Virus record (IMG/VR): IMGVR_UViG_2609459830_000015
Source: a virus
Taxonomy: Duplodnaviria > Heunggongvirae > Uroviricota > Caudoviricetes
Reading direction: 5' to 3' (one strand)
Length of the DNA: 22,011 nt
The position numbers and the translations under genes are program-made. The notes under the pieces are model-generated. The model was not told where the DNA came from. It made no database searches and saw nothing but the letters and a program-made list of their open reading frames with translations. This document shows positions 1 to 22,011 of the stretch, piece by piece. Each line of letters starts with the position of its first letter. Positions within the stretch are counted from its first letter, which is position 1.

Positions 1-349
1 GGCGTAAGAGGCCCCGGAACGTTATCGTTCACACGGACCGTGGAGGCCAGTACTGTTCAGCAGATTATCAGGCGCAACTGAAGCGGCATAATCTGCGTGG
101 AAGTATGAGCGCAAAAGGTTGCTGCTACGATAATGCCTGCGTGGAAAGCTTCTTTCATTCGCTGAAAGTGGAATGTATCCATGGAGAACACTTTATCAGC
201 CGGGAAATAATGCGGGCAACGGTGTTTAATTATATCGAATGTGATTACAATCGGTGGCGGCGGCACAGTTGGTGTGGCGGCCTCAGTCCGGAACAATTTG
301 AAAACAAGAACCTCGCTTAGGCCTGTGTCCATATTACGTGGGTAGGATC
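1..349 (+). mobile_element. IS3-family insertion sequence, right-hand end only (element continues left of the window)
   Basis: Transposase OrfB C-terminal coding sequence runs into the window and stops at 320; 321-349 (ggcctgtgtccatattacgtgggtaggatca) reads as a terminal inverted repeat ending TGGGTAGGATCA, consistent with the 5'-TG...CA-3' termini of IS3-family elements. Exact boundary is +/- a few bp. Confidence 0.85.
3..320 (+). CDS. IS3-family transposase OrfB, C-terminal fragment (5' end outside window)
   Basis: Frame 3 is open from the window edge: ...[51 protein letters not shown]...[22 protein letters not shown]. The HTDRGxQY and CYDNAxxESFF blocks are the DDE-region signatures of IS3-family OrfB. 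Confidence 0.9.
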
Positions 350-471
350 ACGCAGGGGTCGGCCCATTTGAGCTTCAGATAGGAACGTTTGAATTCCTTT
401 CACAAAATACATCACATACTGAACGTGAACATTCCCACTTTGATCTTAAGGCCAAAAAGTATGCAGGACTA

Positions 472-2190
472 ATGATTTTTAGGGATAGCTTGAGAGTATT
501 ACCTTATGGTCGAGTAGATAATGATTTCTTCCAGATAGAAGAAAGACGTTCATGGAATGCAGGGCGATATTATTGGTCTAATAGAAGGATTTTTGGTTAT
601 ATTGGAATTACTCAATCCAGTAATAAAGAGCTGAAAGATAAGTCGGGGAGAGAGGGATTCATAAGAAACCAGGCTGCAAGAGAACTGAAAACTATTATAT
701 CTAATTTGTTAACTGAACTTGCTGATAGATTTTTTGGTTCACGTTCTGATGACCGTAAAGAGCTTTTAGAACAAGTTAAGCGTGAAAAAGAGTTAAGAAA
801 ATCTGCTCAACAACAAGCTCGAAAATCAACACAAAAAAGTTTTTCAGAAGCTTTGAAGAATCAGACACCAGTTCTTGATGCTTCCTTGGAGGCTGTTAAA
901 AGGCTGAAAACTAAGCTTGATAAAACTGATGGTTCGTTAGATTTAAACTATCTTAAAATTATAGACAGTGATCTTACAAACTTAGATGCGTTGCGCAGTG
1001 AAATTAAAACGCCTATCAAACCTCCAAAACTTGGAATGTATGAAGAGAAATATAGAGACTACAGAGATAAATTTAATGAGTTCTCTGCGTATATTCTACA
1101 AATGAAGTTAGCAATTAATAAACTTGATTCTGAATTAAATAAACTTGAGCCTTCATTGTCAGCGAAAAATCACCTTGAAAAAAATCAAGGTATTATTAAT
1201 TCTAAACTAACTAAGTTTAATAACACGATAGAGGAGAAGATACATTCTCTTTTAAAAAAATGGGCCGATGAAATAAAGGTTGATCGAAGTGATTATTATG
1301 CTAAAACTATATCAGTTGTTGATTCAATAGATAATGATTCACAAATTGAAAATGTGTTTAATTTGCTCGATAGTTTATATGTTGAGTCAGTTGATACCCT
1401 AACTTTCAAATATCAATCAATAATAAAAGGTCTCGATAGATTATTTGAAGGTATAAACTTAGATTCAGCATTCTCATTATCTGAAGAAGAACGCTCATAT
1501 TTTGAAGAAAAAGCTAAAAGTTTAAACGCGCTTGCACAGTTAGGTATTAGTGTTGAGATAATATCTCATGAACTTGAAGAAATGGATTCTATGGTAACCA
1601 GAGGACTAAACTCTCTTCCTACTTCTGTAAAAGAACACCCTGGTTTTTCATTGGCGTTAAATGCTCACAGATCGCTTACTCAACAAATACGTTTCTTATC
1701 ACCTTTGAAAATATCAGGTTATCAATCCAGGCAGAGAATAACTGGAAAAAATATCATGGATTATGTCCTGAAGTTCTTTGGGGAGCGTTTCGAACGGCAA
1801 CGAATAACTATTGAATTTAGTGAAGAGTTTAAGCAAATCGCAATAACAGATATACCATCAAGGATCTATCCTGTTTTTACTAATATTATCAACAATGCAA
1901 TGTATTGGGTCAGTCTGTCAAATAATAGGCTCATAAAGATTGGTTTTGTGAATTCTTTGGTTATCATAGCAAATTCTGGTCCGGCAATTGATACCGATGA
2001 TATCCCGCGACTATTTGAACTATTTTATAGCAAAAGAGCAAATGGACATGGGGTAGGTCTGTATCTATGTCGAGAAAACCTTGCTGTTGCACATCATAAA
2101 ATATGGTATTCAGAACCTGATGAAGGCGATAACTATTTAATAAAAGATGGCGCTAATTTTGTGATCCAGTTCAATGGAGTGGAGTTCTAA
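472..2190 (+). CDS. Histidine kinase core (coiled-coil region, HisKA-like H-box, HATPase_c); probably 5'-truncated by the IS3 insertion
   Basis: 572-aa ORF. C-terminal third shows an H-box (LGISVEIISHELEEMDSMV), N-box (VFTNIINNAMYW), G1 box (IANSGPAIDTDDIPRLFELFYS) and G2 box (GHGVGLYLCRENLAV). The N-terminal ~250 aa are K/E/L-rich, coiled-coil-like. The same frame is open upstream from 346 (immediately after the IS3 end) to the first ATG at 472, with no stop. Confidence 0.8.
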   Translation: MIFRDSLRVLPYGRVDNDFFQIEERRSWNAGRYYWSNRRIFGYIGITQSSNKELKDKSGREGFIRNQAARELKTIISNLLTELADRFFGSRSDDRKELLEQVKREKELRKSAQQQARKSTQKSFSEALKNQTPVLDASLEAVKRLKTKLDKTDGSLDLNYLKIIDSDLTNLDALRSEIKTPIKPPKLGMYEEKYRDYRDKFNEFSAYILQMKLAINKLDSELNKLEPSLSAKNHLEKNQGIINSKLTKFNNTIEEKIHSLLKKWADEIKVDRSDYYAKTISVVDSIDNDSQIENVFNLLDSLYVESVDTLTFKYQSIIKGLDRLFEGINLDSAFSLSEEERSYFEEKAKSLNALAQLGISVEIISHELEEMDSMVTRGLNSLPTSVKEHPGFSLALNAHRSLTQQIRFLSPLKISGYQSRQRITGKNIMDYVLKFFGERFERQRITIEFSEEFKQIAITDIPSRIYPVFTNIINNAMYWVSLSNNRLIKIGFVNSLVIIANSGPAIDTDDIPRLFELFYSKRANGHGVGLYLCRENLAVAHHKIWYSEPDEGDNYLIKDGANFVIQFNGVEF

Positions 2191-2191
2191 T

Positions 2192-3940
2192 ATGACAGTG
2201 GCAAATTATAATTCTCTTGTCCAGAAAACTTTCTGCGAAAATGCAATTCGTTCCGTTGTCATGATTGATGACGATTTTCTGACGTATTCTGAATCAATCA
2301 GGGCGTTGAATAACGAAGTTGATTTAGACTACAACAAAATTGACTCATCTAAACGAGCCGCTACTCTTGAGAGCTTTTTTCAATCTAAAAATATGATTTG
2401 TGATGTTGACAATGGTTCTGTTAATTTCGATGTGGATCGGATTAGAAAATCAGATCTTATTATTGTAGATTATCATCTTGATAATAATGCACCTGATAAA
2501 ACACTTAAACTATTACAAGATTTGAAAGACTCCGATCATTTAAATATGATTGTAATATATACTAGAGAGAATTTAGAAACGGTTTGGATGCAGATATCAT
2601 CGACTCTCAAAGGTGCTCTGGATATCAACAGCTTGATCATTGACTACGATAATGAAGATGTCCAAAGTTATTGGGAAGACGTTGTATTACCGAACTTAAA
2701 TGATAATGGTAATAAAGCTCTCACAAGAGATGAAACAATAGCCTATATTAAAGACAGTAAGCCTTGTAGAAGAATTAAAAGATTAATACATGATGATGCT
2801 GTGTTGGAGGATCAAAAGGATAAAAACTTCATTGCAAAAATGATTGCAGAATATGCTGTGTCTAGAAATGCAATTATTTCTAGCAACACATCTGGCAATG
2901 TCATTCGGGGTGATGAAAGCGGAGTAAAATGGATTCAATGTGGTAATATCTTTGTCTCCCTATTTCATAAGGTTCAAGATGATCATGAAAACGATGGAGA
3001 TAGAATTTGGCAAACTCTCAATGATTCTCTCATTGAATGGAAACCATCTTATTATCAGTTAATAAAATCTGAAATTCAGAATGCAATCGAAGCTGAGGCT
3101 TTATCTTTTGTAAATCATTTGGCTAACGATCATTACGGTCAAGCTGCGTGGTTAAATGAGATATTAAAATCAGACTCGCCTGATATTAGATGTAGAAATA
3201 TTGACTTTGTATTTGGTAATTTATCAGAAGAGCTTTATCAAAGACTTAAAAATAATAATACGCTGGATGAATTTATCAAAAGTGTTTTTGATAGCTATTC
3301 AAATGAATACGCTAACAGCGGAGTTGCTGCATTGCTCCAATATTGCTCTTCAAAAATGGATCTGCCATCAAATAATGATACTTATCACGAAATGTATCAT
3401 GCTTTAAATATGAATTTGTCTTCAAAGAATTTTGAAGATGGTCATATTTCTACTGGCACTATTTTCTTTGATACAGAGTCGAACAAATGGTATTTATGTG
3501 TATCTGCGGCATGTGATTTGGTTCCTACTCAGGGTAACGACCCTCACCATGTAAGATTAAGTCCGCACAGGCTCATTAAAGTTCTGGAGCTTTTTAACGC
3601 CAGTCAGAGTAAAGCATTGCCATTTGCTGAACATTCGAAATATATATATGTAATGCATAAAAATCAAAGAAAATATCTCTCTATTTTCGAAGGGGATAAA
3701 ACGCTTCCTGTTGTTGATTATATGGTGGTGTTGAATCATGGAACAACAGTTGATGGCGAAGAAAAAAATATTATTTCTGCCGTGTTTTTAAGTAATATGG
3801 ATGGCAACGTGCAAAATGTTCCTGTCCGACTCAAACTTAAATCTCAACTGAGAACTGGTTATGCAGAAAGATATCAGGCTATAGCGTCTCAGTATAGCTC
3901 AAGGATTGGTGTGGATTATGTATCAATGATGCTACCATAA
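2192..3940 (+). CDS. Receiver (REC)-like domain protein with a large C-terminal domain of unknown function (putative phosphorylation-controlled effector)
   Basis: N-terminus resembles a response-regulator receiver: acidic beta1 (VVMIDDD), candidate phospho-acceptor Asp at the end of beta3 (DLIIVDYHLDNN), Thr after beta4 (MIVIYT), then a Lys. The remaining ~430 aa have no motif I recognise. Start taken as ATG 2192 (GGAG at 2181-2184, 7 nt upstream; 1 nt after the kinase stop); an in-frame ATG at 2174 is the alternative. Confidence 0.7.
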   Translation: MTVANYNSLVQKTFCENAIRSVVMIDDDFLTYSESIRALNNEVDLDYNKIDSSKRAATLESFFQSKNMICDVDNGSVNFDVDRIRKSDLIIVDYHLDNNAPDKTLKLLQDLKDSDHLNMIVIYTRENLETVWMQISSTLKGALDINSLIIDYDNEDVQSYWEDVVLPNLNDNGNKALTRDETIAYIKDSKPCRRIKRLIHDDAVLEDQKDKNFIAKMIAEYAVSRNAIISSNTSGNVIRGDESGVKWIQCGNIFVSLFHKVQDDHENDGDRIWQTLNDSLIEWKPSYYQLIKSEIQNAIEAEALSFVNHLANDHYGQAAWLNEILKSDSPDIRCRNIDFVFGNLSEELYQRLKNNNTLDEFIKSVFDSYSNEYANSGVAALLQYCSSKMDLPSNNDTYHEMYHALNMNLSSKNFEDGHISTGTIFFDTESNKWYLCVSAACDLVPTQGNDPHHVRLSPHRLIKVLELFNASQSKALPFAEHSKYIYVMHKNQRKYLSIFEGDKTLPVVDYMVVLNHGTTVDGEEKNIISAVFLSNMDGNVQNVPVRLKLKSQLRTGYAERYQAIASQYSSRIGVDYVSMMLP

Positions 3941-4011
3941 TTATTATATTTTAGGCGTGGTGATTTTTTTTCGCCATGCCTATTTTATATTTATCATCAC
4001 AATGATGTTGT

Positions 4012-4428
4012 TTATTTTTGTTTAAGTCTTCTAAGCTTCATGCATTCTAATGAGAATAATAATAGAGTTGTGCTGTATATAAAGCCAGAGTTAGTTAATA
4101 ACTTTAAATTTAATGCTTCAGGATTTTCACTGAGAAAGTGAAAGGCATAAACTAAGTATACAGCTAAAGTAGCCGTTCCAATTGTTGGTCCAATATCGCC
4201 TTGATCATGAGGTTCAAGGTTTACATTGAACTTGAAGATTAGCCATTCAAATCCCCAAGTAAAAAAAACAACTAATATCATGGCTGCGAATAATTTCGCG
4301 ATGTTATCTGCTGATGGATTCATCAGAACAGATTGTTTCTGAAAAAATTCACAAAGTGAGAGTCCGAAAAAAATAAAAAAAAGTGGTCTGGAACTAAATT
4401 TTTCAAAAACTTTGAATAGGGTTTCCAT
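4012..4428 (-). CDS. Small integral membrane protein (about 4 predicted TM helices), unknown function
   Basis: 138-aa ORF with hydrophobic stretches (PLFFIFFGLSLCEFF; LFAAMILVVFFTWGFEWLIF; IGTATLAVYLVYAFHFL; GFIYSTTLLLFSL). AT-rich like the kinase/REC cargo. Starts 38 bp downstream of the integrase stop on the same strand. Confidence 0.55.
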   Translation of the reverse strand: METLFKVFEKFSSRPLFFIFFGLSLCEFFQKQSVLMNPSADNIAKLFAAMILVVFFTWGFEWLIFKFNVNLEPHDQGDIGPTIGTATLAVYLVYAFHFLSENPEALNLKLLTNSGFIYSTTLLLFSLECMKLRRLKQK

Positions 4429-4466: not shown

Positions 4467-5738
4467 TTAGGCTACCAGAGCATTTGATCTTTGAGCTTGA
4501 ACGTAATCACTCCACCATTGCATCAAACTCTGTCGCTCTATCAGATATTCTGCACGATTGTATGCTGCGATAATTTCATCTTTTTTCGAGTGGGCAAGCG
4601 CTGCCTCAAGAACTTCAGCTCTGAATTTACCAGACTCCTCTGCCGCTGTTCGTGCAATAGAACGCATACCGTGAGCTACAAGCTCGCCTCCGAACCCCAT
4701 TCGGATGATAGCTGCGTTGGCTGTTTGTTCATGCATATGATTAAGAGGCGCTTTTATGCTGGGGAAAACCCATTCTCTATGCCCACTTATTGATTTCATT
4801 AATTCAAGGATGCGCAAAGCTTCTTTACTCAAAGGAACTTTGTGAAGCTTTTTCATTTTCATGAAATCAGCAGGAATGTTCCAAATGCTGTTGGTTGTAT
4901 CAATATCAGACCACCTTGCGCGAACGGCTTCACCCGGACGAACCCATGTCAACAATTGCCATTCAATTAGCATACGTGTTTCCAACCGGATTGACGCATT
5001 CGTCAAAGATTCCATAAACCTTGGCAATTCGCTTGGGGGAAGGGCAGGCATATTTTGCTTTTTTGGTTTACTGAATCTTTGACCAAGGTTGTCAGCCGGG
5101 TTGAACTCAATAAGTTCTTCAGTAGCTGCCCACCGGAAGATTTCATTCAGACGTGAAATGATACGGCGTAGAGTTTCCAATACGCCTCGTTGCTCAATAG
5201 GATCAAGGTGTTGTTTTAAGAGCTTAGGTCGGATCTCATTGATAGGGACATTACCCAGACCGGGAAAGACATTTCTCTCTAAGCTGCGCCAGATGTCTGC
5301 TGCATGGTCTTGTGAGATACCTGATGTCTTTACCTTCTCATCTAACCATTTCCGCGCTACGGCTTGGAGAGTGTGCTCAGTAGCACTCTTTAATGCCTTC
5401 GCCTTATCGTTGTTATGGATTTGGGGATCAACACCATTTGCCAGAAAGGAGAGATATTCATCACGTAAGGCTCTGGCTCTTGCAAGGGTAAGGTGAGGAT
5501 ATGTCCCAAGGCTCATTTTGGTTCTTTTCTTGCTCACTGGTACTGCATACCTGAAATACCAATTTTTCTTGCCTCCTTTCGCCAAAGGAGCGATTCGTAG
5601 AATCAGACCATCACCGTCAAACAAGTTGATTTCTTTATCGGCTGGCTTGGTGCTTTTGATTTCAGTGTCAGTGAGCTTCTTAGCGATTTTTGCCATTTTG
5701 GGACCCTCGGTTTTTGGACCCTTCTTAGTGGGTCCCAT
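4467..5738 (-). CDS. int: P4-type tyrosine integrase (IntA/CP4-57-like family)
   Basis: 423-aa ORF. N-terminal arm-binding region typical of P4-family integrases (KLTDTEIKSTKPADKEINLFDGDGLILRI...KNWYFRY) and a C-terminal catalytic region (...AHGMRSIARTAAEESG...EAALAHSKKDEIIAAYNRAEY) with the R...HxxR...Y pattern. The true start is probably the internal Met (MAKIAKKLTD, about 5696). Confidence 0.9.
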   Translation of the reverse strand: MGPTKKGPKTEGPKMAKIAKKLTDTEIKSTKPADKEINLFDGDGLILRIAPLAKGGKKNWYFRYAVPVSKKRTKMSLGTYPHLTLARARALRDEYLSFLANGVDPQIHNNDKAKALKSATEHTLQAVARKWLDEKVKTSGISQDHAADIWRSLERNVFPGLGNVPINEIRPKLLKQHLDPIEQRGVLETLRRIISRLNEIFRWAATEELIEFNPADNLGQRFSKPKKQNMPALPPSELPRFMESLTNASIRLETRMLIEWQLLTWVRPGEAVRARWSDIDTTNSIWNIPADFMKMKKLHKVPLSKEALRILELMKSISGHREWVFPSIKAPLNHMHEQTANAAIIRMGFGGELVAHGMRSIARTAAEESGKFRAEVLEAALAHSKKDEIIAAYNRAEYLIERQSLMQWWSDYVQAQRSNALVA

Positions 5739-6230: not shown

Positions 6231-6572
6231 ATGAGAACAGTAGCGAGAAGATCGATACAGACGATTGAGCGTCGGACTCAACTCGTCAGTTCTTTTGTTG
6301 ACTCAAACACAGCAAACGAGTTCTTCGTGAGAAGACTGAGTGATCGTGTCTCCCCGGCACGTCAGCTGTTTATTGTGACATTGAACAATGAGGTTCGTGA
6401 CGGTGACGTGATCCCGTTCGCTGAGATCGCCATGAACAAAGAAAAATTGCGCTATGTTGTGAAGCCAGCAGATCAGTATCCTCAGTATGTAAGCAGTAAT
6501 CTGCTGAAGAAAATTGAAGCGGCAATTGCTCTATACATGCAGAAGAACTACAGGGAAATTAACTACCATTAA
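6231..6572 (+). CDS. Hypothetical protein (113 aa), first gene of a cargo cassette between att and the prophage integrase
   Basis: ORF preceded by GAGGAG (6219-6224) 6 nt before the ATG; no recognisable motif. An 8-bp-stem hairpin (CTTCACTG...CAGTGAAG, 6193-6214) sits in the leader. Confidence 0.6.
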   Translation: MRTVARRSIQTIERRTQLVSSFVDSNTANEFFVRRLSDRVSPARQLFIVTLNNEVRDGDVIPFAEIAMNKEKLRYVVKPADQYPQYVSSNLLKKIEAAIALYMQKNYREINYH

Positions 6573-6583
6573 AAGGTTGCTGA

Positions 6584-7351
6584 ATGGCTCCTGCGTTAAT
6601 ACCTTCATATAACAAGGACTTGAACATTACGCCATTTGGCGAAAAACGTCTTATTGAGTCATTCTATTTTTTCACTGCCGAGGCTGGCTTACTGAGGGCT
6701 GATGAGTACATTGTCAGTTCTGGTGAGTTTCAGTACTACTTGGATGTGTATCAACTGGGATGTTCCACCGACGACTTTTTTTTAGACTATGGCAGTGACC
6801 TTCTTGATTCGAAGGTTCCAATGCAGGATCTGGTCAATACCCTCTTGGGTCTTGATATGGTAGACGATAACAAAACGATAAGAATAGGTCGTATACAGTT
6901 CAACGACTTTAATTTTATCGAAGAGAACGGTCAGATGATGACCGGAAAGCAAGTGAAAAGCGCTGTTATCGCACAGGATTTCCAATCAGCAGGTTTGGCG
7001 CGTGAGATCTATAAAATGCTTGCGCGAAAGCATGAGTTTCTCATCTGCGATAACATTCAAAGTATTGCCGGTGGTGCTCTTTGGGCTAGTAGCATCATTC
7101 GAATTGCCGAGGTACGGATCTACAATTCACGCACGAAGAAATTTATGGACATACTTGGTCCAGGTGCGCGTGGCGTTTCAGGTACTTTGCCATGGAGTGC
7201 GAATGATCTGTCTGTAGATGAGATTGTTCGCTGGGGTCGTGCGTATGATGATGAAAACTGTTGTCGTCACATTGTACATGTTATCTGTAAGGACCGACTC
7301 ATTGACGATCAATTTCATGATTATGTTTCGATAGGTGGCGCGACAGAATAA
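6584..7351 (+). CDS. Hypothetical protein (255 aa), second gene of the att-int cargo cassette
   Basis: ORF starts 11 bp after the upstream gene's stop and is followed by a terminator; no recognisable catalytic motif. Confidence 0.65.
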   Translation: MAPALIPSYNKDLNITPFGEKRLIESFYFFTAEAGLLRADEYIVSSGEFQYYLDVYQLGCSTDDFFLDYGSDLLDSKVPMQDLVNTLLGLDMVDDNKTIRIGRIQFNDFNFIEENGQMMTGKQVKSAVIAQDFQSAGLAREIYKMLARKHEFLICDNIQSIAGGALWASSIIRIAEVRIYNSRTKKFMDILGPGARGVSGTLPWSANDLSVDEIVRWGRAYDDENCCRHIVHVICKDRLIDDQFHDYVSIGGATE

Positions 7352-15335: not shown

Positions 15336-15748
15336 AGGTACCCGAACAGAAGCAGGCTTAAAGGTGCCTGTTCAGGTTGGCAACCAACTGACCCAACTCC
15401 TCATGTGTACTAGGGAAGTAGTACGTTTTTATGGGGAAGAGGGTAAGGGGGGTAAGGGGGGATTGGGTGTTGGGGCAGGAATAGGGTCTTTTCCAACAGG
15501 AGAGATCCATTGGTTAAGTAGATCACTGTCTTAAGGGCGCAATTTAAAAAAACGCCCGTATCAGCAAGGTAGTACAAAGCGCTCAGGCGCTGAGAAACGA
15601 AAAGGGTTCTTCCTGGAAGAGTGATTTTTCAGAGGAGCTGAATCAGAAGGGAGGCTGGCAGCCTTTGGGGAGGCCACCAGCCATGTGAGGGGGAATCCAT
15701 GAAAACCACATCACAAAATTATTATCTCATCAGCACGGGAGCTGCACA

Positions 15749-17407
15749 ATGGAGCTGACGATCACGCCGAATTTTGCACAGGAACGAGCGTTAAACATGT
15801 TGCGCCGTGACTGGAAGGCAAACGACACCTTCATGGTTTACTCGCCAACAGGTAGCGGTAAAACGGGTCTGGCAGCCTTCATAGTTGCTGGTTTTGTCAG
15901 CCGTGGTATGCGTGTTCTGTTCTGTGTTCCGTACACCATCCTGATTGGTCAGACGGCTAATCGGTTCGTGCAGTATGGTTTACCTGGAGATGAAATCGGT
16001 TATATCTGGGCGGATCACCCGAACTACGATCCGGACCGGAAAATTCAGATTGCCAGCGCTGACACGCTTATTCGTCGTGTTTTTCCTGAAAATATCGATC
16101 TGCTGATTATCGACGAAGCGCACCTGCGTAAAAAACGCATCCTGAAGGATATCGAACGTCTGCGCGGCAAAGGCGTAAAGGTGATTGGCCTGTCGGGTAC
16201 TCCGTTTTCTCCGTTCCTGGGCAAATACTATGACCGACTGATTAAGCCGACCACCATCGGCGAGTTAATCCAGCGTGGCGATCTGAGTAAATACGAATTT
16301 TACGCGCCAACTAAGCCGGATCTGAAAGGTGTTAAAACCACATCTTCGCTTGAGTACGGCCGCGATTACAACGAAACACAGCTGGCTGAAATCATGTGCG
16401 GCTCTACGCTGGTGGGCGACATCGTACAGAACTGGCTGGAGAATGGTCGGGATTTACCTACCATCGCTTTCTGCGTCAACGTAGCTCACGCCAATTATCT
16501 GACAATCCAGTTTAACCTGGCGGGTGTTAACGCTGAGGTAATGACCGCCGACACTCCGGTAGATGAGCGCCAGACCATCATTCACCGCTTTGAAACCGGT
16601 GCAACGAAAATCATCGTTAGTGTGGGCGTTCTGGTGGCCGGCTTTGATAGTGACGTTCGTTGCATCATCTACGCCAGGCCAACAAAAAGCGAAATTCGCT
16701 GGTTGCAGGCTCTCGGGCGTGGGCTGCGCACCGCACCGGGTAAAGAGTCCTGCCTTATCTTCGATCACAGCGGCACCGTGCACCGTTTGGGTTATCCGGA
16801 TTCAATCGAGTACGACGAGCTTCCCGGTAAGTCTGACGGCATGGAGGAAAGCGCGCGCCGGGCAGTTGAGGAACGGGCCGAAAAACTGCCACATGAATGC
16901 CCTCAATGCCACTACATGAAGCCAGCAGGCGTCTATGTTTGCCCGAAATGTGGACACAAGCCGCTGCGAGGTGAAGACGTTGATACTGACACTAGCCGCA
17001 AACTTAATAAGCTGGGTAAAAATCAGCATCAGTCGACGAAGGCAGAGAAACAGTCCTGGTGGAGTCAGATCAAATTTTATCAGCGCCAGCGTGCTTCGCT
17101 GGGGCGTCCAGTCAGTGACGGATGGTGTGCTCACACTTTCCGGGAAAAGTTCGGTGAGTGGCCTGACGGACTGAGTAACTTTCCGATGGAAATTACCCCT
17201 GAGGTAAATAACTACATCAGACACAAACTGATCCGGTTTGCCAAAGGCCACCAGCGGGTTCAGAAGGTCACTGAAAACGCACAAACAACGATTGATTTAT
17301 CTCAGGAACGTGATGAACGACGTGAGATACCGGCAGGCAGTGAGGCCTGGCGCATCATGCAGGCAAAGCACCAACTCCAGAAAAATATAAACAGTCTGAG
17401 TCAGTAA
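15749..17407 (+). CDS. SF2 DEAD/DEAH-box helicase with C-terminal zinc-ribbon (phage replication helicase)
   Basis: Walker A (YSPTGSGKTG), DEAH box (LLIIDEAH), motif III (LSGTPF), motif VI (QALGRGLRT), and a C-terminal CPQC...CPKCG zinc-ribbon. Confidence 0.85.
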   Translation: MELTITPNFAQERALNMLRRDWKANDTFMVYSPTGSGKTGLAAFIVAGFVSRGMRVLFCVPYTILIGQTANRFVQYGLPGDEIGYIWADHPNYDPDRKIQIASADTLIRRVFPENIDLLIIDEAHLRKKRILKDIERLRGKGVKVIGLSGTPFSPFLGKYYDRLIKPTTIGELIQRGDLSKYEFYAPTKPDLKGVKTTSSLEYGRDYNETQLAEIMCGSTLVGDIVQNWLENGRDLPTIAFCVNVAHANYLTIQFNLAGVNAEVMTADTPVDERQTIIHRFETGATKIIVSVGVLVAGFDSDVRCIIYARPTKSEIRWLQALGRGLRTAPGKESCLIFDHSGTVHRLGYPDSIEYDELPGKSDGMEESARRAVEERAEKLPHECPQCHYMKPAGVYVCPKCGHKPLRGEDVDTDTSRKLNKLGKNQHQSTKAEKQSWWSQIKFYQRQRASLGRPVSDGWCAHTFREKFGEWPDGLSNFPMEITPEVNNYIRHKLIRFAKGHQRVQKVTENAQTTIDLSQERDERREIPAGSEAWRIMQAKHQLQKNINSLSQ

Positions 17408-17408
17408 G

Positions 17409-18377
17409 ATGAAAACAGCAGATGCAGCGAAAGGCCGCTGGCCTGAAATATTAGAGCACTTCGGTCTGCCGCCGATAACCGGAAAAAATCACTTCAAGGG
17501 TGAATGCCCGGTATGCGGTGCACGTGGCAAGTTCCGAATTGACGACCGCGACGGTGCAGGAACGTGGATCTGTGTATGTGGTAGTGGCGATGGTATGAAA
17601 CTTGTCACCCTGACACAGGCGAAGCCATTTAACGAGATTTGTACCGAAATAGACCGCCTGATCGGTAATGATTACCAACGGGTTAAAATCCCGGTAACCA
17701 GCAGCGCCACCAGCTTACGCAAACGGGTATTGAGCAAGTTTTCAAAACTGGAGGCACTGCGTGGTACATCCGGCGCAGCGTATCTTAATTCTCGTGGAAT
17801 ATTCAGTCTTCCTGCTGAGGCGATCCGGTTCAATGCCAGGCAGAGACACAACGGGAGTGTGTTCCAGTCTCTTTATTCACTTGCTACGGACGATAAAGGG
17901 GAGTTGTGCTATCTGCACCAGACTCTGCTTGATGGTGATAAAAAAGCAGATATCGGTAGCAGTGCAAAGCGCCTCAAATCCCTGCAGGAAGATAACTATT
18001 TGGATCACGCTCGTTCTGTAGCTATCCGCATGTTTCCTGTCGCCAGCACTCTGGGTATCGCCGAAGGCATCGAAACAGCGCTGTCAGCGCACCAGATTTA
18101 TAACGTGAACACCTGGGCAACCATTAACAGCGGCTTTATGAAAAAGTTTCGCGTACCAGCTGGTGTTCTGCACCTGATTATTTTTGCCGACCGTGACGAG
18201 AACAGCGCCACCGGGCTGGCTGCGGCTTGCGAATGTGCTCATGCCAATCTGATGGCAAAGAATGACCTGCAGCGCGTGAGCGTGTACTGGCCGGATCACG
18301 ATGATTTCAACAATATGCTCATGAACGGTGATCAGGTTCGAGAGCTGGTTTTCCATAAGAAAAAGGCGGTTGCGTAA
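17409..18377 (+). CDS. DNA primase (zinc-binding N-terminus plus Toprim domain)
   Basis: CPVCGARGKFRIDDRDGAGTWICVCG zinc-binding motif; Toprim signatures (GIAEGIETALS with the conserved Glu; LIIFADRDENSATG with DxD). Starts 1 nt after the helicase stop. Confidence 0.75.
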   Translation: MKTADAAKGRWPEILEHFGLPPITGKNHFKGECPVCGARGKFRIDDRDGAGTWICVCGSGDGMKLVTLTQAKPFNEICTEIDRLIGNDYQRVKIPVTSSATSLRKRVLSKFSKLEALRGTSGAAYLNSRGIFSLPAEAIRFNARQRHNGSVFQSLYSLATDDKGELCYLHQTLLDGDKKADIGSSAKRLKSLQEDNYLDHARSVAIRMFPVASTLGIAEGIETALSAHQIYNVNTWATINSGFMKKFRVPAGVLHLIIFADRDENSATGLAAACECAHANLMAKNDLQRVSVYWPDHDDFNNMLMNGDQVRELVFHKKKAVA

Positions 18378-19234
18378 TGCGTACTGATAATAACGAACAT
18401 AAAGCACTATTCACCATCCCGACGGCAGCGTACAGCTCCGCCCTCGCAAACATCAAGCCCCTGCCAGAGCAACGGAGAATCACCGGGCATAAGCAGACTG
18501 ATGCTTATCTTTGGGTGCTGGAGGTTATCCGTCTGAACGAACCCGCACATCTGGATGCTGCTGAGGCTGCGCTGGTGAAAATTAAAATTTCCCCAAAAGA
18601 GGCTCAGGAACGCTATTCGCGTTATCTGCTGGCGAATGGTTACGAACCTTTCCAGGTTGCGTTCGGCATCATCGGCATGGATAACCCTGCGCAGGTTATC
18701 AGGAACGCCCGGGAGAACATCAAAAAAGCGGCATCAGTCAGGGCTACGTTTGGTAGCTATGAAGCAGCGCTCGAAGATGTGGAAGCAGAGCGGGTCATCA
18801 GGTCTTCCCAGAAATTTATCAACGATCATCTCTGGGGCTGGACTGCGGCAGAGAAAAAAGCCGGAAGCATTGGCGGCAGCCGCATGAACGAAATTGATGA
18901 ACAGCGTCGGGCATTTGTTGATGGATATCGCGATGTGCTGCCTGAGCCTTATACGCTGTCTGATGTTGTTCGCGAGTTCGTTTACTGGGACTGGCTCTAC
19001 AGTGTTCGCCACACTGCAACTAAAGAACAGGGCGATGAGTTTGGTTACTCTGAGCATCACGAATCGGTATATGACCGGGAGCGCTACCTTGAAAAATTGC
19101 TGGCAACCATCAAACCGGTGACACGCGCTGAAGCCGTGGAGGTGTGCCGCTGGTTTCTGGCAAGTGGTAAGGGTGAATGCATGGAAGACGACGGTGCAAC
19201 GGTCATTCTCAATCTGGTTGGTGAGTGCGAATAA
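18377..19234 (+). CDS. Hypothetical phage protein (285 aa)
   Basis: ORF coupled to the primase (TAATG overlap at 18375-18379) and to the downstream Q-like gene; no recognisable motif. Confidence 0.55.
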   Translation: MRTDNNEHKALFTIPTAAYSSALANIKPLPEQRRITGHKQTDAYLWVLEVIRLNEPAHLDAAEAALVKIKISPKEAQERYSRYLLANGYEPFQVAFGIIGMDNPAQVIRNARENIKKAASVRATFGSYEAALEDVEAERVIRSSQKFINDHLWGWTAAEKKAGSIGGSRMNEIDEQRRAFVDGYRDVLPEPYTLSDVVREFVYWDWLYSVRHTATKEQGDEFGYSEHHESVYDRERYLEKLLATIKPVTRAEAVEVCRWFLASGKGECMEDDGATVILNLVGECE

Positions 19235-19626
19235 TGCGTGATATTCAGATGGTTCTCGAACGCTGGGGGGCATGGGCGGCAAGTGGTAACGCCGGGGTGG
19301 ACTATTCTCCGATAGCTGCTGGATTTAAAGGCCTTTTACCATCCACCGCTAAACCTCGCCCGGCCTGCAGCGATGATGACGGCCTTATCATCGAAAACTG
19401 CCTTACGCGCCTGAAGAAGAAAAAACCGGACGAGTATTCGCTGCTGGTAGCTCATTATCTGCTGCGCATATCAAAAAGGCAGATTGCCAGAACAAGAAAG
19501 AAGAGCGAAAAGGCAATACGAATTGAGATGCAGATTGCTGAAGGATTTATTGACGGATGTCTGTCGATGCTGGGTGTAAGGCTGGAGATGGACGACTGGC
19601 TGCCCAAAAAAGTAAAAAATGATTAG
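19234..19626 (+). CDS. Q-like late-gene antitermination protein (phage 82/21 Q type)
   Basis: MRDIQMVLERWGAWAASGNAGVDYSPIAAGFKGLL... resembles the N-terminus of phage-82-type Q antiterminators as I recall them. A strong intrinsic terminator lies about 60 bp downstream. Start taken as ATG 19234 (TAATG overlap) rather than the track's GTG 19225. Confidence 0.6.
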   Translation: MRDIQMVLERWGAWAASGNAGVDYSPIAAGFKGLLPSTAKPRPACSDDDGLIIENCLTRLKKKKPDEYSLLVAHYLLRISKRQIARTRKKSEKAIRIEMQIAEGFIDGCLSMLGVRLEMDDWLPKKVKND

Positions 19627-19684
19627 CGCGGTCCGCAAAAAGTATGTCAGTATGTTAAGAGTGGTTACTACGCCACACAGCTTA

Positions 19685-19708
19685 AACCCGCCGCGAGCGG
19701 GTTTTTTT
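19685..19708 (+). terminator. Rho-independent terminator downstream of Q (tR'-like)
   Basis: aaaCCCGC-CGCGA-GCGGGttttttt: GC stem 19687-19701, T-run 19702-19708. Confidence 0.7.
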
Positions 19709-19823
19709 ATGGCTGAAATCGGTCCAGTACAGTAAACGCGCTGGCGGCGGTGAATACCGGTCTTTCAGCTTGCTGGCTTTTTCGACAAGAGTTATTGGTG
19801 TGTCACGTTAACCGGAAAAAGAC

Positions 19824-20021
19824 ATGCTGAAACAGCAGGATATGACCGAAACCGCCAGAGTGGTGTTTAATGAATTAAGCGTCACCGAACCGGCGACCGT
19901 CGGGGAGATTGCGCAGAATACTTACCTTTCACGCGAACGCTGCCAGTTAATACTGACCCAGCTGGTTATGGCGGGTCTGGCAGACTATCAGTTCGGTTGT
20001 TACAGACGCCTTCAGTCCTGA
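19824..20021 (+). CDS. Hypothetical small protein (65 aa)
   Basis: ORF downstream of the tR'-like terminator; its stop codon sits in the stem of a terminator-like hairpin. No motif. Confidence 0.4.
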   Translation: MLKQQDMTETARVVFNELSVTEPATVGEIAQNTYLSRERCQLILTQLVMAGLADYQFGCYRRLQS

Positions 20022-20032
20022 AGGCTTTTTTA
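20008..20032 (+). terminator. Rho-independent terminator-like hairpin
   Basis: GCCTTCA-GTCC-TGAAGGC (20008-20025) followed by TTTTTTAT. Confidence 0.5.
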
Positions 20033-20485
20033 TTTGTGGTAAATGGGCGGCTGGTGGGTGTGGTGGTTGTTGCTTTCCCGTTGCTGAAAAAGAAAGCATC
20101 AGGCGATTAGCAGGGTATCAGTTACCCGTTGAAATTTTTAAATACCTCACAATTCAGGCGGTTGACTGTTGTCTGGTTTGCGGGGAGTTTGTTAAAAGAA
20201 ACTGGCATGGTGAATCCCCCTGTGCGGAGGGGCGATCAGCAACCAGGTATATGGGATAATCGCGGATTCAGGTGCTGATACTGAATTCACCGGGAGGCAC
20301 CCGGCACCATGCTTTGCCACAAAAGTGTTGTTTCTGTTTTTCTCAAACTATCATCGTTATCCCTTTATTTCCGGCTGCGCATGGCGTGGCCTTTTTTTTA
20401 CGACCAGCCACTGGCAGATGGCCATCCTGTAATTTGATTCCGGTTCCGGCTTTTTAACTCTGTTCCTGTACACGGGAGAAATTCG

Positions 20486-20774
20486 ATGTCGATTAAACAT
20501 TATGATGTTGTCAGGGCGGCGTCGCCGTCAGACCTTGCGGAAAAGCTGACACATAAACTGAAAGAGGGCTGGCAGCCGTTTGGTAGTCCGGTGGCCATAA
20601 CCCCTTATACCCTGATGCAGGCGATTGCAGCAGAAGGTGATGTGGTGGTCAGTGGTGCAACTGAGCCGGATTGGTACTACGTCATCGTACTGGCCGGGCA
20701 GTCCAATGCAATGGCTTACGGTGAAGGGCTTCCGCTTCCGGATTCATACGATGCTCCGGATCCGCGCATTAAAC
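20486..20774 (+). pseudogene. NanS-p-like esterase gene (DUF1737-like N-terminus plus start of SGNH domain), 3'-truncated by IS66-family insertion
   Basis: MSIKHYDVVRAASPSDLAEKLTHKLKEGWQPFGSPV... then ...YYVIVLAGQSNAMAYGEGLPLP, where GQSN is the block-I motif of sialate-O-acetylesterase-type SGNH hydrolases. Protein-like sequence stops where the IS terminus GTAAGCG begins (about 20775); the rest of the track ORF is read-through into the IS. Confidence 0.6.
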
Positions 20775-22011
20775 GTAAGCGTGCAGCAAGAACCGTATTG
20801 ACGGGGATGTGTTATTCAGTCGGCAGTGCTACGCGCCAGGGGAGCAGTTCGCCGACCCGGTTTATCGGCCAGTCGGCTATGACGTCAAGGACATAGCGGA
20901 GGTAGCTTTCTGGCTCCACTCCGTTCAGTTTGCACGTCCCGATCAGGCTGTACAGCAGCGCTCCCCGCTCTCCTCCATGATCCGAACCGAAGAACAGGTA
21001 GTTTTTGCGGCCCAGACTGACCATCCGCAACGCATTTTCAGCGATGTTATTGTCAGCCTCAGCCCAGCCATCGTTCGCATAGTACGTCAGCGCCGGCCAC
21101 TGGTTCAGGGCGTATGCGAACGCTTTCGCCAGTTCTGAGTGTCGCGACAGGGTTTTCATCTTTTCACGCAGCCAGCTTTCCAGGGATTTCAGCAGCGGTT
21201 TCGTTTTCAACTGACGTTCGGCAAGGCGCTGCTCCGCCGTCATTCCCCTTATCTCTGCCTCGATGGCGTACAGTTCGCCGATCCGTTTCAGCGCTTCCTC
21301 CGTCAGGGCTGACGGGGTGCGAACGTGCACATCGTGGATTTTACGGCGGGCGTGAGCCCAACAGGCGGCTTCCGTTATCCGGCCATCCCGGTACAGCTCG
21401 TTGAACCCGGCGTATGCATCCGCCTGCAGTACACCACTGAACCCCGCAAGATGGGTCTGCGGATGGATGCCTTTTCTGTCCGGGCTGTAAGCGAACCACA
21501 CCGCCGGCGCCAGCGTTGACCCGGCGTTACGGTCGTCACGAACGTAGGTCCATAACCGCCCGGTCTTCGTTTTCTTATTGCCTGGCAACAGCACCGGGAC
21601 AGGCGTGTCATCAGCATGGAGCTTACCGTCAGTCAGCACATAGTCCTGAAGCGCTTCTTCCAGCGGTGACAGTAGCCGGCAGCATGCATCCACCCAGCCC
21701 GACAGCAGTGAACGACTCAGCTCCACGCCCTGGCGGCCGTACATTTCAGACTGGCGGTACAGCGGGGTGTGCTCTGCATACTTTGAGATCAGCACGCGGG
21801 CCAGCAGCCCCGGTCCTGCGATACCCCGCTCGATGGGCCGTGAAGGCGCGGGGGCCTGCACGATGGCATCGCACTGAGTACAGGCATGCTTTTCACGTAC
21901 AGTCCGGATAACCCGGAAGGCGCTGCGCATCAGCTCCAGCTGTTCGGCGGCATCCTCACCCAGATAGCTCAGCGAGCCTCCACATTCCGGGCAGCATGAC
22001 GCTGCCGGCAG
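20775..22011 (-). mobile_element. IS66-family insertion sequence, one end only (element continues right of the window)
   Basis: TnpC-type transposase on the minus strand running to the window edge; terminus beginning GTAAGCG at 20775, 37 bp beyond the transposase stop. The GTAAGCG terminus is from memory of IS66-family ends. Confidence 0.75.
20812..22011 (-). CDS. IS66-family transposase TnpC (N-terminus outside window)
   Basis: The minus-strand frame is open from the track's Met (21930) to the window edge: ...[48 protein letters not shown]..., giving the CxxC...CxxC zinc-finger typical of IS66 TnpC upstream of the DDE region. Confidence 0.88.

Follow-up and report, generated by a model that had tools for sequence, protein, structure and literature searches.

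What is the function of the long C-terminal part of a response regulator-like protein in which no known domain can be recognized? This question is raised by the open reading frame (ORF) at positions 2192-3940 (+) of IMGVR_UViG_2609459830_000015, an IMG/VR virus record (Caudoviricetes) that is analyzed here over its entire length of 22,011 nucleotides (hereinafter, the window). A first, sequence-only reading of this DNA described the product as a receiver-like domain ending at about residue 140, fused to an unrecognized module of about 430 amino acids (aa), and proposed that the latter is an output effector controlled by phosphorylation. As judged by domain profiles and gene order in diverse genomes, the regulator is the Response_reg_2 partner in a conserved cassette in which a C5 DNA methylase is followed by a paraMORC-GHKL/HEF_HK histidine-kinase-like ATPase and then by the receiver-module protein, often with Vsr. 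The reading that best accommodates this context, with a probability of roughly 0.45, is that the regulator is a phosphorylation-gated effector in a methylation-based immunity cassette. The copy in the window itself belongs to a truncated cassette and has to be considered separately.

The ORF can be accepted as a genuine gene. The frame is open from 2174 to 3940, and the ATG at 2192 fits both the RefSeq entry WP_000214990 (“response regulator receiver domain”) and the N-termini of the homologs, which gives a protein of 582 aa. A 582-codon open frame at 34% GC would occur by chance with P of about 1e-19, an estimate from composition, and full-length homologs are known from many phyla. Residues 19-175 match the Pfam family PF19192 (Response_reg_2) with an E-value of 3.6e-31 (109.1 bits vs a gathering cut-off of 27), in agreement with the description of the N-terminus as receiver-like. 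In the AlphaFold model of the full regulator (predicted local distance difference test score, pLDDT, of 84.9), residues 21-140 comprise strands beta1-beta4 and helices alpha1-alpha4, a helical insert (145-226) comes next, and a further strand (253-259) ends at Lys260 and precedes a helix (268-283). The insert is the least conserved and most length-variable part of the protein (mean consensus fraction of 0.25 vs 0.37-0.50 elsewhere). In 216 homologs, the receiver residues are strongly conserved (D26, 97%; D27, 91%; D93, 100%; T124, 100%; K260, 99%). HHalign pairs D26/D27, D93 and T124 with D12/D13, D57 and T87 of CheY, and the N-terminus of the regulator has the CheY-like (beta/alpha)5 fold. 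Given the strand and helix in the model and the 99% conservation of the lysine, we infer that K260 is the beta5 lysine of the receiver, that helix 268-283 is alpha5, and that the receiver ends near the invariant P285. The proposed boundary at about residue 140 would accordingly move to about residue 285, and the unrecognized module is reduced from about 430 to about 297 aa (residues 286-582; positions 3047-3937). The receiver is complete, with every residue needed for phosphorylation present. Because the active-site residues are kept and a histidine-kinase-like gene is located immediately upstream, the suggested gating of the C-terminal module by phosphorylation is plausible. The regulator gene is laid out as follows.

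2192-2623 (+): receiver core, residues 1-144, from beta1 to alpha4, with D26/D27, D93 and T124
2624-2881 (+): helical insert within the receiver, residues 145-230 (AlphaFold secondary structure and alignment gaps)
2882-3046 (+): probable receiver beta5 with Lys260 and alpha5, residues 231-285, closing with the invariant W283-x-P285 (model and conservation)
3047-3421 (+): acidic helical bundle, residues 286-410, closing with an H-A-L-N motif in which N406 is invariant (AlphaFold models)
3422-3940 (+): beta-rich C-terminal domain, residues 411-582, and the stop codon

The absence of a recognizable signature beyond the receiver was confirmed by all searches performed. Outside PF19192, the whole regulator protein has no Pfam, NCBIfam or PADLOC match; sequence searches of the PDB with family-wide and module-only profiles detect nothing below an E-value of 0.4; and the highest Kyte-Doolittle value over any 19 residues, 0.96, is too low for a membrane helix. 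In PHROGs, the only matches are families of “unknown function”, whose source prophage records include this remnant. A Pfam search at E <= 10 with 18 diverse C-terminal modules produced only scattered single matches. No helix-turn-helix, winged-helix or LytTR output domain (OmpR, NarL, NtrC or LytTR types) is recognizable, so that the DNA-binding domain that would have made this protein an ordinary transcriptional regulator was not encountered. Modeled alone, the module adopts a confidently predicted fold (pLDDT 82; predicted template modeling score, pTM, 0.76), and a Foldseek search against the PDB returned nothing at E <= 1e-3, the best probability being 0.18. Thus, the region past the receiver is indeed unrecognized, and what points to an effector role is the gene context described below.

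The module consists of two parts, a helical bundle (residues 286-410, median isoelectric point, pI, of 5.1 in the family) and a beta-rich domain (residues 411-582, median pI 7.7). The latter contains the motifs (T)G-T-I/V-F, Y-L-C-V-S-P/A-A-C-D, P-H-R, Q-L-R-x-x-Y-A-x-R and R-I-G-V-D-F/Y. Among the 216 sequences, N406, G422, C441 and R571 are 100% conserved, C436, A479, R560, G573 and D575 at least 96% conserved, and Y557 and R554 91-94% conserved; such sharp conservation suggests a defined active or ligand-binding site. Four known types of site were compared with these motifs by eye and rejected: a caspase/CHAT-like site (“S-A-C” after a hydrophobic strand), for which the conserved His-Gly is absent and the fold class is wrong; a cytidine deaminase-like site (H-x-E ... 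PCxxC), for which the Glu is absent and the spacing is wrong; PD-(D/E)xK, given that the module has no conserved Glu or Lys; and a Cys-based phosphatase (CX5R), for which the Arg is absent at the needed position.

A profile of residues 286-582 run against 1.84 billion representative proteins identifies 645 matches at E <= 1e-3 (clusters at 50% identity) from Proteobacteria, Acidobacteriota, Planctomycetota, Verrucomicrobiota, Gemmatimonadota and Desulfobacterota. Among the 150 matches listed, nearly all are about 580-620 aa long and contain the module at about residues 280-600, and the shorter ones look fragmentary. Conversely, a word-indexed search for other C-terminal partners with a receiver-only profile retrieved only fragments of the same family. 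Receiver and module thus form a fixed pair, the module being fused only to the PF19192 receiver among the matches examined.

The genomic context of this pair was analyzed in 62 loci from one-genome-per-species contigs (Gamma-, Alpha- and Betaproteobacteria, Acidobacteriota, Planctomycetota, Gemmatimonadota, Verrucomicrobiota and Desulfobacterota), with the ORFs classed by iterated profiles; adjacency was counted in the 52 of them that have 4.4 kb or more of upstream sequence. The kinase gene is adjacent to the regulator gene in all 52 of these loci, and a methylase, assigned to the C5 class by both Pfam and PADLOC, is found in 51, upstream on the same strand in 44 and immediately downstream and convergent in 7. 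A protein of about 140 aa that recurs in 27 loci is the mismatch endonuclease Vsr (Pfam), the usual companion of C5 methylases. Clustering of the remaining ORFs of the 62 loci reveals no other gene family in more than 6 loci and no recurrent separate nuclease, and no nuclease motif is detected in the kinase or the regulator with Pfam, NCBIfam or PADLOC. The cassette, in which the order of the genes hardly varies from phylum to phylum, has no other candidate effector gene. Three intact loci, those of Pantoea dispersa (ML137047.1, 1264373-1270278), of a metagenomic relative (in which the kinase gene itself is split into two ORFs) and of Escherichia coli SE15, read methylase, kinase, regulator, with the genes abutting or overlapping, and the intact kinases contain HATPase_c_3 (paraMORC-type GHKL) at about residues 28-138. 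Integrases, relaxases and an island resembling an integrative and conjugative element (ICE) lie near the cassettes, and the GC content is low; the cassette travels on mobile, low-GC islands.

Several loci depart from the typical arrangement. In Acinetobacter and some marine Gammaproteobacteria (loci L012-L015, L020, L021 and L048), the methylase gene is located downstream of the regulator gene on the opposite strand, i.e., the triad is kept and the operon structure is not. The only adequately flanked locus of the survey without a methylase within 8 kb (L033, from a Gemmatimonadetes metagenome-assembled genome) has a short kinase ORF of 842 aa and may be another decayed copy. The E. coli SE15 locus (L004, NC_013654.1, 4538062-4556787) is an intact cassette of a second type (ECSF_RS22155, RS22150 and RS26660) within an island that resembles an ICE (ArdC, MobH relaxase), and it is located immediately upstream of the gene for an HNH_2 “phosphorothioated DNA-binding restriction endonuclease”. 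This second, intact type is present in 212 complete E. coli genomes; the SE15 regulator is 24% identical to that of the window and contains the same motifs.

The linkage of the two signaling genes has been described previously. Bellieny-Rabelo et al. 2021 (PMC8011034) defined PF19192 together with PF19191, having first found the family through Pectobacterium genes induced in planta, and reported a regulator-kinase linkage of 91.6%, with C5 methylases, Vsr and restriction-modification genes enriched nearby. The C-terminal ~300 residues of the regulator are not discussed in that work, which includes no functional test.

These observations can be combined into a mechanism in which the methylase would mark self DNA, surveillance of DNA would fall to the paraMORC half of the kinase, and unmarked DNA would trigger His-to-Asp phosphotransfer. 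Phosphorylation of D93 would then switch on residues 286-582, possibly through dimerization of the receiver, which is how receivers usually activate outputs, and this module would act as the toxin or nuclease of the system. The beta-rich domain may be distantly related to the CcdB/MazF-like barrel, with the invariant Cys, Asn and Arg and the near-invariant Asp forming a cluster; CcdB and MazF toxins act as dimers, which would fit activation by receiver-driven dimerization. The cassette would resemble a restriction-modification system in which the “R” half is replaced by a signaling pair. A more specific proposal, which can be advanced only tentatively, is that residues 286-582 are a new effector, either of a fold not yet classified or derived very distantly from CcdB/MazF with an invariant Cys/Asn/Arg/Asp site, that is switched by the receiver, and that the cassette accordingly represents a new class of immunity in which a methylation self-mark is coupled to a toxin through a His-Asp phosphorelay.

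Several findings count against such an interpretation. No catalytic motif of a known nuclease, RNase or other toxin family is found in the module with Pfam, NCBIfam or PADLOC, and neither the kinase nor the regulator is represented by a PADLOC model. The regulator is present over at least 80% of its length, without the methylase, in 560 of the 5426 complete E. coli genomes; the unactivated protein is thus harmless, and a non-toxic protein would look alike. Furthermore, the truncated kinase encoded in the window retains the phospho-acceptor and catalytic domains, so that this kinase, were it expressed and active, would phosphorylate the regulator without the cell being killed. Finally, the literature on HEF_HK, PF19192, paraMORC and Detocs yielded no test of the cassette, no phage-defense experiment and no characterization of the C-terminal module; in the DefensePredictor paper, a predicted HATPase/REC system appears in a figure legend only and could not be tied to this family.

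Among the alternatives, the one that fares best concerns the window copy and is compatible with any view of the intact family, namely, that this particular gene is a functionless relic preserved through a recent truncation and a clonal lineage. The window is a segment of the E. coli chromosome that adjoins the gab operon, and its first 6 kb are 99.9% identical, over 100% of the length, to O103:H2 strain PV16-126. The GC content is 32-34% at positions 1000-4000 vs 44-52% in the flanks, and the region from 351 to ~5738 is the counterpart of a “remnant integrative element” (HK-like gene to intA) in the GenBank record of prophage CP-1639. Apart from the regulator gene, this part of the window contains the following features.

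1-350 (+): right end of an IS3 insertion sequence (IS) element, with the end of the orfB transposase and the terminal inverted repeat (RefSeq IS3 family transposase annotation)
351-2190 (+): remnant of the paraMORC / histidine-kinase-like ATPase gene (called ORF 472-2190, 572 aa)
3952-3982 (+): terminator-like hairpin followed by a T-run (consensus scan: 12-bp stem with 6 GC pairs, T-rich tail)
4012-4428 (-): hydrophobic ORF of 138 aa, convergent with the regulator gene (hydropathy maximum 2.06)
4467-5738 (-): tyrosine integrase (Pfam Arm-DNA-bind_3, Phage_int_M and Phage_integrase)

The IS3 end (...GTGGGTAGGATCA) finishes at 350 and abuts the cassette remnant, which starts abruptly at 351 inside the kinase gene. 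The ORF 472-2190 aligns to residues 419-989 of the intact 990-aa kinase of Pantoea dispersa with 82% identity and, in Pfam searches, contains HEF_HK at residues 356-414 (26.1 bits vs 24.1) and HATPase_c at residues 462-553. HEF_HK is a phospho-acceptor helix pair. The HATPase_c_3 (paraMORC) half is absent, about 378 N-terminal residues of the kinase being gone (418 before the called start) together with the methylase gene, and no cognate DNA methyltransferase is encoded in the window. The CP-1639 record has the identical break point, joined to chromosomal DNA and without IS3; the deletion may have been mediated by IS3 with subsequent loss of the IS, or else IS3 may have been inserted at a pre-existing junction.

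Because the methylase and the sensor half of the kinase are lost, the window cassette is probably not operating as a system. The regulator itself is an intact-looking orphan and not a visibly decayed pseudogene: it is full length and every family-invariant residue is present. It most likely does nothing or, given that it persists without the methylase, is at least not lethal without methylation when unactivated. That the gene is a relic is rather probable in view of the missing methylase and kinase residues (1 to about 378), the break point shared with the CP-1639 remnant, the near-uniformity of the copies (identity of 99% or more in 559 of the 573 matching E. coli genomes), a sign of recent shared ancestry and not of selection over a long period, and the lack of an intact cassette of the window type in any complete E. 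coli genome. The retention of a full-length ORF with all the family-invariant residues, of the phospho-acceptor and catalytic domains with an in-frame start codon in the kinase fragment, and of an undisrupted gene in most copies (although one record, H26, has an IS insertion inside the gene) argues in the opposite direction. The integrative element that carries the window gene is decayed and lies beside a prophage, and the E. coli genomes in question include strains of the Shiga-toxin lineage (O103, O111). An annotation of the gene as a functioning response regulator or as a defense system is not justified.

For the intact family, it is unlikely, although worth weighing, that the output of the C-terminal module is regulatory, through binding to DNA or to the methylase, in which case the cassette would be an epigenetic circuit tuning the methylase or reading the methylation state. 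Response regulators are for the most part transcription factors; with a median pI of 7.7, the beta-rich domain is neutral to slightly basic, and nucleic acid could be bound, though not cut, through its invariant Arg, Tyr and Gln; an orphan regulator is tolerated without the methylase; and the founding Pectobacterium genes are induced in planta (PMC8011034). Yet the helical bundle is acidic (pI of about 5), the cassette moves as a unit on low-GC integrative elements among restriction-modification genes, as is typical of defense cargo and not of housekeeping regulation, and paraMORC ATPases are tied to restriction systems (PMC2292703). Less likely still is that the module is a non-catalytic partner docking on the paraMORC ATPase, which would clamp or compact unmethylated DNA (MORC-like silencing) or recruit a host nuclease: the regulator and kinase are always adjacent, often with overlapping genes, the module is never found apart from the receiver/kinase pairing among the matches listed, a recognizable catalytic motif is absent, and eukaryotic MORCs are described as entrapping and compacting DNA (PMC8277788), but the strictly invariant Cys, Asn and Arg, the near-invariant Asp and the further conserved Arg and Tyr, shared across phyla, resemble an active or ligand-binding site more than a surface for docking.

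The strong hairpin located 12 nt past the stop codon of the regulator gene probably marks the end of the operon. The hydrophobic ORF at 4012-4428 (-) has no Pfam or PADLOC match and is found in the same position only in close enterobacterial cassettes (a cluster of 4 loci from Citrobacter, Erwinia and Serratia, L006-L008 and L011); it could encode an accessory membrane component or be cargo of the element. The tyrosine integrase at 4467-5738 belongs to the integrative element that brought the cassette; because the window contains no tRNA gene, no attachment site can be assigned. Between this integrase and that of the prophage are two adjacent ORFs, 6231-6572 (+) and 6584-7351 (+), which encode proteins of 113 and 255 aa without Pfam or PADLOC matches that correspond to PHROGs families 2594 and 3307, with no function assigned there; such a position between integrases often holds prophage accessory or defense genes. 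The rest of the window, 7393-22011, is filled by the early region of a lambdoid prophage, with an integrase (7393-8571), an ORF6N-domain protein, an SPFH/Band 7 protein (10618-11445), a CI-like S24 repressor (13965-14657), a superfamily 2 (SF2) helicase (15749-17407) and a Toprim primase (17409-18377). In strain 1639/77, the equivalent locus holds the Stx1 cryptic prophage CP-1639.

With respect to known systems, both the family with its gene linkage and the existence of receiver-gated defense effectors have been reported. The C-terminal module is undescribed, and no structural relative could be assigned to it with confidence. The closest relatives, the Response_reg_2/HEF_HK pairs (PF19192 and PF19191; PMC8011034), are the same family, and we recover their association with C5 methylases and Vsr; the published description covers the receiver-like N-terminus and the phospho-acceptor domain of the kinase only. 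The intact cassettes, with an N-terminal HATPase_c_3 module encoded beside a DNA methylase, fit the reported association of paraMORC GHKL ATPases with restriction-modification systems (Iyer, Abhiman and Aravind 2008, PMC2292703), but the paraMORCs of that study pair with helicases and recognizable endonucleases, and that paper does not mention receivers or two-component signaling; in the cassette analyzed here, the partner is a receiver with an unrecognized module, and there is no conserved nuclease gene.

The resemblance of the beta-rich domain to the CcdB/MazF/Kid fold is a lead and not a classification. The identity is 6-11%, the domain spans about 170 aa compared with about 100-115 aa in the toxins, and the toxins use no invariant Cys whereas the module domain carries one. 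HHalign comparison of the beta-domain alignment with a MazF/Kid/YdcE alignment gives a probability of 0.1%, the Foldseek search yields no match to these toxins, and none of the 18 modules has a PemK_toxin or CcdB match in Pfam at E <= 10.

Two defense systems are similar in logic. In Detocs (10.1101/2023.01.24.525353), which consists of the DtcA kinase, the DtcB buffer receiver and the DtcC receiver-PNP effector, a cytoplasmic kinase phosphorylates a receiver fused to a non-DNA-binding effector that replaces the transcription factor domain. In the cassette, PNP and the other effector domains of Detocs are absent, as is a TPR sensor, and a gene for a separate buffer receiver does not recur in the 62 loci; Detocs lacks the C5 methylase and the paraMORC ATPase module, both of which the cassette contains; no PADLOC model matched, although the presence of Detocs models in that release was not confirmed. 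In Shedu type 1F (PMC10441436), an N-terminal receiver is presumed to gate a C-terminal immune effector and a kinase gene is adjacent, as in the cassette. The DUF4263 / PD-(D/E)xK domain of Shedu is absent from the regulator (Pfam, E <= 10, 18 members), and no Shedu chain is among the PDB structure-search matches. Thus, Detocs and Shedu type 1F are precedents for receiver-gated immune effectors, and the regulator belongs to neither. If the effector interpretation is correct, the cassette, which is widespread and, with three genes, small enough for a direct test, would add a new effector module to the catalog of bacterial immunity and would unite two principles so far observed separately, the methylation self-mark of restriction-modification and a phosphorelay that fires a cell-autonomous effector, as in Detocs and Shedu type 1F.

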